10,456 nucleotides of DNA, taken from the IMG/VR virus record IMGVR_UViG_2579779002_000003; one strand, 5' to 3'. The notes under the pieces were generated by a model. It was not told the origin of the DNA. It worked only from the letters and a program-made list of their open reading frames with translations, and made no database searches. Shown here piece after piece: positions 730-1,760 of the stretch. The translations under genes were made by a program, and so were the position numbers. Position 1 is the stretch's first letter. Each line of letters starts with the position of its first letter. Origin of the DNA: a virus. Taxonomy: Duplodnaviria; Heunggongvirae; Uroviricota; Caudoviricetes.

Positions 730-1180
730 TTTTCAGCAGCCCGCGGAGATGCGCTTTAACCGCGCCCGTGTCCGGCGGGCGTTTGTCACGATTGGTCAGC
801 GTCATATGCGTGATGCCCGTCGGCTGGTGATGCGCCGTGCGCGGTCGGCACCGGGTGAAAACCCCGGTTATCAGACCGGACGCCTGGCACGTTCGATTGG
901 TTATATGGTACCCAGAGCCAGTAAACATCGCCCCGGTTTTATGGCACGTATAGCCCCTAACCAGCGTAATGGTGAGGGAAACCGCCGCATCACCGGTGAT
1001 TTTTATCCGGCTTTTTTGTTCTATGGCGTGAGGCGAGGGGCAAAGCGTCGTCGCAGCCATCATCGTGGTGCATCCGGTGGCAGCGGCTGGCTCCACGTAA
1101 TAACTTTATGGTGGAAACGCTTCAAAAGAACCGCAGCTGGACACGCTATTTTCTGGCGCGGGAATTACGTAAATCACTGA
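704..1180 (+). CDS. HK97 gp10-family protein (tail completion / head-tail connector component); 3' end frame-ambiguous
   Basis: GGAGG at 694-698 is 5 nt upstream of ATG 704; TGRLARSI and FYPAFLFYGV segments resemble HK97 gp10-family motifs. The C-terminal stretch in this frame is Arg/Trp-rich with rare codons, and an alternative frame is open from 1000 to 1203 (see findings). Confidence 0.6.
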   Translation: MATSFFHVDFQQPAEMRFNRARVRRAFVTIGQRHMRDARRLVMRRARSAPGENPGYQTGRLARSIGYMVPRASKHRPGFMARIAPNQRNGEGNRRITGDFYPAFLFYGVRRGAKRRRSHHRGASGGSGWLHVITLWWKRFKRTAAGHAIFWRGNYVNH

Positions 1181-1199
1181 AGCCGGAGCGACGACACAG

Positions 1200-1760
1200 A
1201 TGAAACTGACGCCTGTTATTGCTGCGCTGCGTGCCCGCTGCCCGTATTTTGAAAACCGGGTGGCAGGCGCGGCACAGTTCAAAAATCTGCCGGAGGTCGG
1301 AAAGCTGAGACTCCCGGCGGCGTATGTGGTACCGGGTGATGATTCTCCGGGAGAAAATAAAAGCCAGACCGACTACTGGCAGGAGCTGAAAGAGGGTTTC
1401 TCCGTGGTTGTCATACTGAGTAACGGGCGTGATGAGCGCGGTCAGTTTGCCTCGTATGATGTGGTGGACGATGTCCGGCAGATGCTCTTTAAGGCCCTGC
1501 TGGGCTGGAACCCGGAAGCGTGCGGTAACCCGATTACCTATGACGGCGGCACGCTGCTGGATATGAATCGTCATGAGCTGATTTATCAGTTCGATTTTTC
1601 GGTCATCAGCGAGCTGACTGAAGACGATACCCGCCAGCAGGATGATCTGAACAGTCTGGATGAACTGCAAACGCTGGCGATTGATGTTGATTATCTCGAG
1701 CCCGGTAACGGGCCTGACGGCGATATCGAACATCACACCGAAATAACCCTTCCTTCCTGA
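1200..1760 (+). CDS. Conserved phage protein of Mu-type tail modules (Gp37-like; candidate neck/tail-terminator protein)
   Basis: 186 aa ORF sitting two genes upstream of the sheath; strongly acidic C-terminal tail. Family call rests on position and size, not on a search. Confidence 0.7.
   Translation: MKLTPVIAALRARCPYFENRVAGAAQFKNLPEVGKLRLPAAYVVPGDDSPGENKSQTDYWQELKEGFSVVVILSNGRDERGQFASYDVVDDVRQMLFKALLGWNPEACGNPITYDGGTLLDMNRHELIYQFDFSVISELTEDDTRQQDDLNSLDELQTLAIDVDYLEPGNGPDGDIEHHTEITLPS

Follow-up and report, generated by a model that had tools for sequence, protein, structure and literature searches.

The gene at positions 704-1203 of an Escherichia coli prophage element raises the question of why its 3' end is divided between two reading frames, and whether a recoding event, an error or a mutation accounts for this. 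The window, by which we mean the whole stretch of DNA analyzed, is the entire contig JJLV01000044.1 (10,456 bases) from the draft E. coli assembly GCA_000627965.1. Based on comparisons with intact relatives we propose that 704-1203 is almost certainly a frameshift pseudogene, which arose through the loss of one unit of a 7-nt repeat and belongs to an SfV-like prophage remnant truncated by an IS1 element. Translation bore out the layout given in the preliminary description: ORF 704-1180 encodes 158 aa ending in ...FYGVRRGAKRRRSHHRGASGGSGWLHVITLWWKRFKRTAAGHAIFWRGNYVNH, and the frame one base leftward, closed by a TGA at 997-999, is open from 1000 to a TGA at 1201-1203 that overlaps the tail terminator ATG at 1200 as ATGA. 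This adjacent frame reads ...RWQRLAPRNNFMVETLQKNRSWTRYFLARELRKSLKPERRHR and ends in ...NNFMVETLQKNRSWTRYFLARELRKSLKPERRHR. The tail terminator gene is normally ATGA-coupled to the neck gene, but here the upstream ORF ends 20 nt earlier. Over codons 1-129 the product is 100% identical to the corresponding residues of the intact protein (168 aa) from strain SW071618; beyond this point a foreign tail reading LHVITLWW...VNH stands in place of 39 native residues, and this 29-residue tail has no counterpart among the 33 family members aligned (Table 1). Separate translation of the C-terminal peptide is implausible, the sole start after 997-999 being an ATG at 1108 that would yield 31 aa; the ORF listing has no entry of 40 aa or more in the adjacent frame at this C-terminal region.

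Table 1. Coordinates of the features of the window discussed in the text
Feature	Position	Strand	Remarks
IS1 element end	1..292	-	insA at 1-237, minus strand
Phage head closure gene	319..729	+	Pfam PF05521 Phage_HCP, E = 9.7e-22; overlaps start of the broken gene
Native-frame part of neck / tail-completion gene	704..1090	+	codons 1-129, ending ...HHRGASGGSGW
T_TTT_TTG heptamer (T6 1012-1017)	1012..1018	+	codes A-F-L of the conserved PAFLFYGV motif
Deletion junction	1083..1091	+	one GCGGCTG unit (1083-1089) plus the incomplete unit GC; reads GCGGCTGGCGGCTGGC in intact relatives
Stranded native C-terminal coding sequence	1087..1203	+	-1 frame, LAPRNNFMVETLQKNRSWTRYFLARELRKSLKPERRHR plus TGA
Out-of-frame tail	1091..1180	+	29 foreign codons (LHVITLWWKRFKRTAAGHAIFWRGNYVNH, nt 1091-1177) plus premature TGA 1178-1180
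Tail terminator gene	1200..1760	+	Pfam PF23840 Phage_tail_terminator, E = 1.2e-26
Tail assembly chaperone gene	3772-4095		PF10109 Phage_TAC_7; T_TTT_TTT in 0-frame register at 4023-4029

A megablast search with region 650-1300 matched 1071 E. coli records, and the region is present at 80% coverage or more in 1034 of the 5426 complete E. coli genomes. Among the matches listed, the full-length, non-identical relatives span 658 nt as against 651 in the window. Two alignments (A1 and A2) reduce this difference to a single 7-nt gap, with GGCAGCGGCTGGCGGCTGGCTCC in the intact alleles and GGCAGCGGCTGGCTCC in the window: the intact relatives carry the unit twice, GCGGCTG GCGGCTG, and the window has one copy, so that owing to the repeat the gap can be placed anywhere from 1082/1083 to 1091/1092. 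In the nearest intact allele these 7 nt are the sole difference from the window. Tandem Repeats Finder reports the GCGGCTG repeat (2.3 copies, 100% matches, L001 1934-1949) as the only tandem repeat in the intact gene. On a larger scale, over the 10,164 nt that align with the closest complete prophage, that of strain D53-1, the window differs by 137 substitutions and a single gap, which is of 7 nt at position 1087. At the protein level the intact translations of 168 aa correspond to frame 2 of the window as far as ...GGSGW and thereafter to frame 1 from (R)LAPRNNF. A TBLASTN comparison over the gene, for which the preliminary description had called, likewise went against the annotated frame: with six homologues of 58-100% identity, frame-2 matches end exactly at nt 1090, those of the homologues of 58-79% identity included, and frame-1 matches reach 1185-1200, which puts the switch at nt 1087-1090. 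The homologues thus change frame, and a collinear alignment through the C-terminus of 704-1180 was not seen. Furthermore, the profile of PHROG 879 is split between the two frames: ORF 704-1177 accounts for no more than its positions 1-130, and the frame 1000-1200 for positions 129-168. The adjacent frame therefore does hold the true conserved C-terminus, as had been suspected, and of the four explanations first entertained the evidence selects a genuine frameshift mutation, a 7-bp deletion at about 1083-1091.

These comparisons also narrow what is aberrant in the annotated product. The last 50 or so residues had been taken as such, but only the last 29 are out of frame. The sequence GVRRGAKRxKxHHRGASGGSGW is conserved in an alignment of 34 family members, indicating that the Arg-rich stretch suspected of being foreign, RRGAKRRRSHHRGASGGSGW, is native. 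Nor does codon usage, which had been invoked in the same connection, separate the frames: the foreign tail has 5 rare codons out of 29, the C-terminus in its native frame 5 out of 38 and the upstream part 15 out of 129. Within the 39 lost residues P133, R134, N136, M138, W148, L153 and L157 are invariant across the family, and the lost C-terminus is still conserved at identities as low as 53%. An AF2 model built on the 34-sequence alignment is of low confidence overall (mean pLDDT 56.9), and the lost segment is the most confident part of this otherwise weak model, with helices at 138-160 of pLDDT 82-85. In light of this conservation, the one-copy allele has probably lost its function as a neck protein, although some activity could be retained by the truncated 129-residue core. 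The basic, Gly-rich loop before the deletion site (residues ~110-130 of 168, window 1031-1090) is variable and predicted to be disordered, with pLDDT < 50. In place of RRGAKRRRSHHRGASGGSGW, proteins P0049 and P0059 have KRRNRWLISQRKGNW, and P0068 and P0108 have YGMSKKDKRQKKQH--SSRW; by its look, the KRRNRWLISQRKGNW variant might result from two frameshifts, one compensating the other.

The surroundings of the gene place it in an element that is itself in decay. Bases 1-292 are 100% identical to another IS1 copy of strain 102651, and the product of 1-237 gives Pfam matches to Zn_ribbon_InsA and HTH_Tnp_IS1. The point at which this IS1 cuts the prophage lies 26 nt before the start of the head-closure gene, and intact prophages align to the window from nt 293 onward only; the last 26 nt of a head-tail connector gene (293-318) adjoin the IS1 end. 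The same junction is found in the complete genomes of E. coli TUM14664 and 102651. The order of genes in 102651 is tRNA-Thr, truncated integrase, IS1 and head closure gene, the truncated integrase on the far side of the IS1 lying beside tRNA-Thr and proA. As the IS1 junction is next to a truncated integrase, it is an IS1-associated deletion that took the entire part of the prophage with the early, lysis, packaging and capsid functions. Consistent with this, the 102651 remnant is devoid of any early, lysis, terminase, portal or capsid genes, and has a frameshifted tape-measure gene and a truncated tail-fibre gene; in TUM14664, as in 102651, lysis and regulatory genes are missing and the tail-fibre gene is truncated. 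Downstream of the tail terminator the window retains a DUF2635 gene, followed by those for sheath, tube, tail chaperone, tape measure and baseplate. As a whole, the element is the decaying remnant of an SfV-like prophage truncated by IS1, its phage relatives being the SfV, SfI, SfII, SfIV, ST64B and phiP27 group (PMC3851460).

Taken together, these observations suggest the following course of events. The gene at 704-1203 is that for the "tail completion / Neck1" protein of a temperate phage of the SfV-like kind, whose head module is of the HK97 type and whose contractile tail is of the Mu type. In its intact form it has the unit twice in perfect tandem, GCGGCTG GCGGCTG, which encodes S-G-W-R-L. 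The loss of one unit, most likely via slipped-strand mispairing in replication, shifts translation into the +1 reading frame after Trp129, adds 29 foreign residues up to the stop at 1178-1180 and leaves the conserved C-terminus of 39 residues (RLAPRNNFM...LRKSLKPERRHR) in the other frame, with no usable start codon. Either before this event or since, the prophage has become defective, an IS1-associated deletion having removed everything that lay between the integrase and head-closure genes. As the prophage is defective, there would presumably be no selection for repair of the neck gene.

One alternative is that the genome truly has two units (GCGGCTGGCGGCTG) and an intact gene, the shift being an artefact of sequencing or assembly. 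The contig is short and comes from a draft assembly, a setting in which frameshifts often turn out to be errors, and the database has further sporadic frameshift variants of this protein. However, a 7-bp loss is unlike an error of the homopolymer type, and the allele is far from private to this contig. The identical allele is present in two complete genomes, TUM14664 and 102651, from Japan and Gambia, whose DNA is 100% identical to the window over 650-1300, and the exact 158-aa product is encoded on at least 24 contigs (27 index blocks; NCBI, ENA and Logan), that of the window included. Moreover, every window-type contig starts inside one and the same IS1 end, as would be expected of an inherited allele. 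Recurrence across independent assemblies thus indicates that the deletion allele is real and eliminates the homopolymer sequencing error initially considered; an artefact of any kind is very unlikely. The public proteins further include sporadic frameshift variants with shifts at differing positions (P0014, P0085, P0094, P0098 and P0114-P0117), one of them shifted in the T-run region to give ...GDFIRLFVLWREARGKASSQPSSWCIRWQRLATGST before its stop; these probably comprise sequencing errors as well as other pseudogenes.

We then considered a programmed -1 ribosomal frameshift, at T_TTT_TTG or elsewhere in 1000-1180, which would yield the conserved C-terminus from the ORF as it stands. The T6 run at 1012-1017 does form the T_TTT_TTG heptamer in the correct register with respect to the 0 frame, and from 1000 onward the -1 frame has no stop before that at 1201-1203, which forms the native ATGA overlap. 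Yet the run is unchanged in the intact genes of SW071618 and UTI89, where the -1 frame soon stops (...RLAAGST), and hence the run, the one concrete site named in the preliminary description, is not the switch point. The accompanying caution that FYGV follows the run still in the original frame was well placed, as the switch lies about 70 nt downstream. A shift at 1018 would in fact swap the conserved FYGVRRGAKRRRSHHRGASGGSGW for unrelated sequence, destroying 23 conserved residues, and direct reading of the sequence finds no X_XXY_YYZ motif near 1087, the only heptamer being that 70 nt upstream. Furthermore, TTTCTG replaces T6 in the allele of isolate 327_BP0021 in spite of the same 7-bp deletion, and the RNA of the 80 nt downstream of the T-run is predicted to fold no better than shuffled sequence (MFE -30.8 vs a shuffle mean of -29.9 kcal/mol, z = -0.27). 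More than 1000 relatives need no shift, only about 0.3% of the E. coli alleles would require one, and the two-frame layout is absent from the relatives: a single uninterrupted ORF is found in over 1000 E. coli records and in every phage relative. Programmed frameshifting in the neck gene is accordingly improbable in the extreme: 704-1203 has none of the features to be expected of a programmed -1 frameshift like that in the tail assembly chaperones (lambda G/GT type). Such a layout does occur elsewhere in the window, in the tail assembly chaperone gene itself. There the -1 frame runs open from the T_TTT_TTT at 4023-4029 until it stops at 4185-4187, and it overlaps the start of the tape-measure gene (ATG at 4180), an arrangement that matches the conserved lambda G/GT-type frameshift; this candidate is likely to be the genuine recoding site of the window.

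The deletion is carried by three complete genomes, TUM14664, 102651 and 327_BP0021, and the last of these bears on its mechanism. In isolate 327_BP0021 the deletion of the same 7 nt affects an allele that is clearly distinct, with many substitutions, and the prophage around it is another one, nearly complete and located elsewhere in the chromosome; the 327_BP0021-type product was found on 8 further contigs. The presence of the deletion in a nearly complete prophage implies that the frameshift is not strictly tied to prior decay, and its occurrence in an unrelated SfV-like prophage makes the GCGGCTG repeat look slippage-prone. A transfer of the deletion into 327_BP0021 by recombination was also considered. 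A diverged block ends about 25 nt upstream of the deletion in this isolate and a C/G difference lies about 40 nt downstream, so that the transferred tract would be at most 72 nt, and independent slippage would seem the more likely of the two. From the signature, i.e. the exact loss of one unit in two backgrounds, comparable to the classical slipped-strand deletions at short tandem repeats, we infer replication slippage. A two-unit 7-nt tandem repeat would thus have sufficed to produce this frameshift in two independent events in about 1000 copies of the prophage.

A further alternative is that the 7-nt repeat is a contingency locus, a reversible on/off switch for the neck protein, or that the truncation is favored in a domesticated tail-only element. 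The identical deletion in two unrelated SfV-like prophages, with diverged alleles and at different chromosomal sites, would accord with this, as would the frequency of the perfect two-copy repeat (a perfect two-copy 60-mer occurs in 315 of 1004 records) and the collinear tail module of the remnant, which has no other indel. Phase-variable loci, however, typically have many repeat units, and here there are only two. Two-copy alleles account for ~99.7% of the records and the one-copy allele for only 3 complete genomes, and a search with a synthetic query returned no three-copy allele among 1018 records, so that copy number is not polymorphic in both directions. Since no repeat is left after the deletion, reversion by slippage is not possible, which also speaks against a contingency locus. 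The losses of lysis and regulatory genes and the truncated tail-fibre gene in both complete genomes of the lineage, and the frameshifted tape-measure gene in one, likewise count against this alternative. In either form it is exceedingly improbable, and occasional, irreversible replication slippage fits the pattern of the deletion where a phase-variable locus does not. A broader version of the slippage reading, in which the GCGGCTG duplication in SfV-like neck genes would be a recurrent hotspot that irreversibly inactivates head-tail joining and thereby speeds grounding of the prophage or favors tail-only remnants, strikes us as very unlikely; were it true, the identical deletion in two unrelated prophages would reflect mutational bias or host selection against virion production.

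The identity of the gene can be stated from its intact versions. The uninterrupted 168-aa gene occurs in more than 1000 complete E. coli genomes, and the intact protein is encoded by the functional phages SfI, SfII, SfV, SfIV, ST64B and phiP27. PHROG 879 ("tail completion or Neck1 protein") matches the intact allele over positions 1-168 of 168 with E = 1.5e-93, and SfV orf8, ST64B sb10 and the counterparts in SfI, SfII, SfIV and phiP27 belong to this same PHROG family. Their protein identity to the intact allele is 92-98% for SfI, SfII and SfV and falls to 58% in phiP27. Like the window gene, those of the SfV-group phages lie between the head closure and tail terminator genes, but they are intact at 168 aa whereas the window copy is without its last 39 residues. 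The preliminary description had called the gene HK97 gp10-like, a label that Pfam and NCBIfam scans did not reproduce, as no family match was obtained for the window ORF, the alternative frame or the intact alleles. In particular, PF04883 (HK97-gp10_like) does not match the window ORF, the alternative frame or two intact 168-aa alleles even at E <= 10, whereas HK97 gp10 itself, as positive control, scores 47.1 bits against a gathering score of 21.4 bits. BLASTP against HK97 gp10 yields E = 1.1 only, and hhalign of the 34-sequence family profile, which is shallow (Neff 2.1), against the single HK97 gp10 sequence gives a probability of 0.6%. A profile search of PDB sequences recovered no relatives at E <= 10. 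With the low-confidence AF2 model as query, Foldseek found nothing in the PDB at E < 0.9, and proteins named "HK97 gp10 family" came up in BFVD only at E = 0.2 to 4; the sole significant match in the two collections is an unnamed viral protein, 34% identical. What does support the label is position: the window order Phage_HCP, neck gene, Phage_tail_terminator puts the neck gene in the slot held by gp10 in HK97, where the genes run adaptor, head closure (Hc1), gp10 family protein and tail terminator. The sizes are also similar (149 aa in HK97 gp10, 168 aa in the window family), but the two have no detectable sequence or profile likeness. The gp10-like name is therefore grounded in gene order and not in demonstrable homology, though a remote homology is possible, and PHROG 879, tail completion / Neck1 (SfV orf8 family), is the safe name.

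In terms of annotation, the lesion is an ordinary pseudogene that RefSeq/PGAP has already flagged in identical genomes. NCBI PGAP designates the gene a "frameshifted" pseudogene in all three complete genomes with the deletion (RS171_RS10060 in TUM14664, ACQCOH_RS18770 in 102651 and ACI1L3_RS22410 in 327_BP0021); these are the same gene with the same 7-bp deletion, span the equivalent of window 704-1203 and show no difference of substance from it. GCA_000627965.1 is a third, draft genome, in whose own annotation the 158-aa ORF is a "hypothetical protein". This ORF (EZJ86354.1, EZK06762.1 and VZQ77670.1) should be labelled as a frameshifted pseudogene of the SfV-type neck / tail-completion gene. 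Region 704-1203 should not be cited as a candidate recoding site, and has little importance beyond its correct annotation.

The window also contains a mosaic block at 3800-6760, with a tape measure gene at 4180-6081 (633 aa) and an extra hypothetical ORF at 6113-6634 (173 aa from the GTG at 6113; 489 nt as annotated in D53-1) that precedes the DNA circularisation gene and has no Pfam match. A blastn comparison of window 3801-6759 with the TUM14664 and 102651 remnants gave no match; these otherwise close remnants have a 611-aa tape measure and are without the extra ORF. Beyond the end of the window (L004 22434-23908, L005 22433-23907), the complete genomes with the same remnant have a truncated stfP tail-fibre gene, which is followed by a glycosyltransferase family 9 gene and an oppositely oriented tail-fibre assembly gene.
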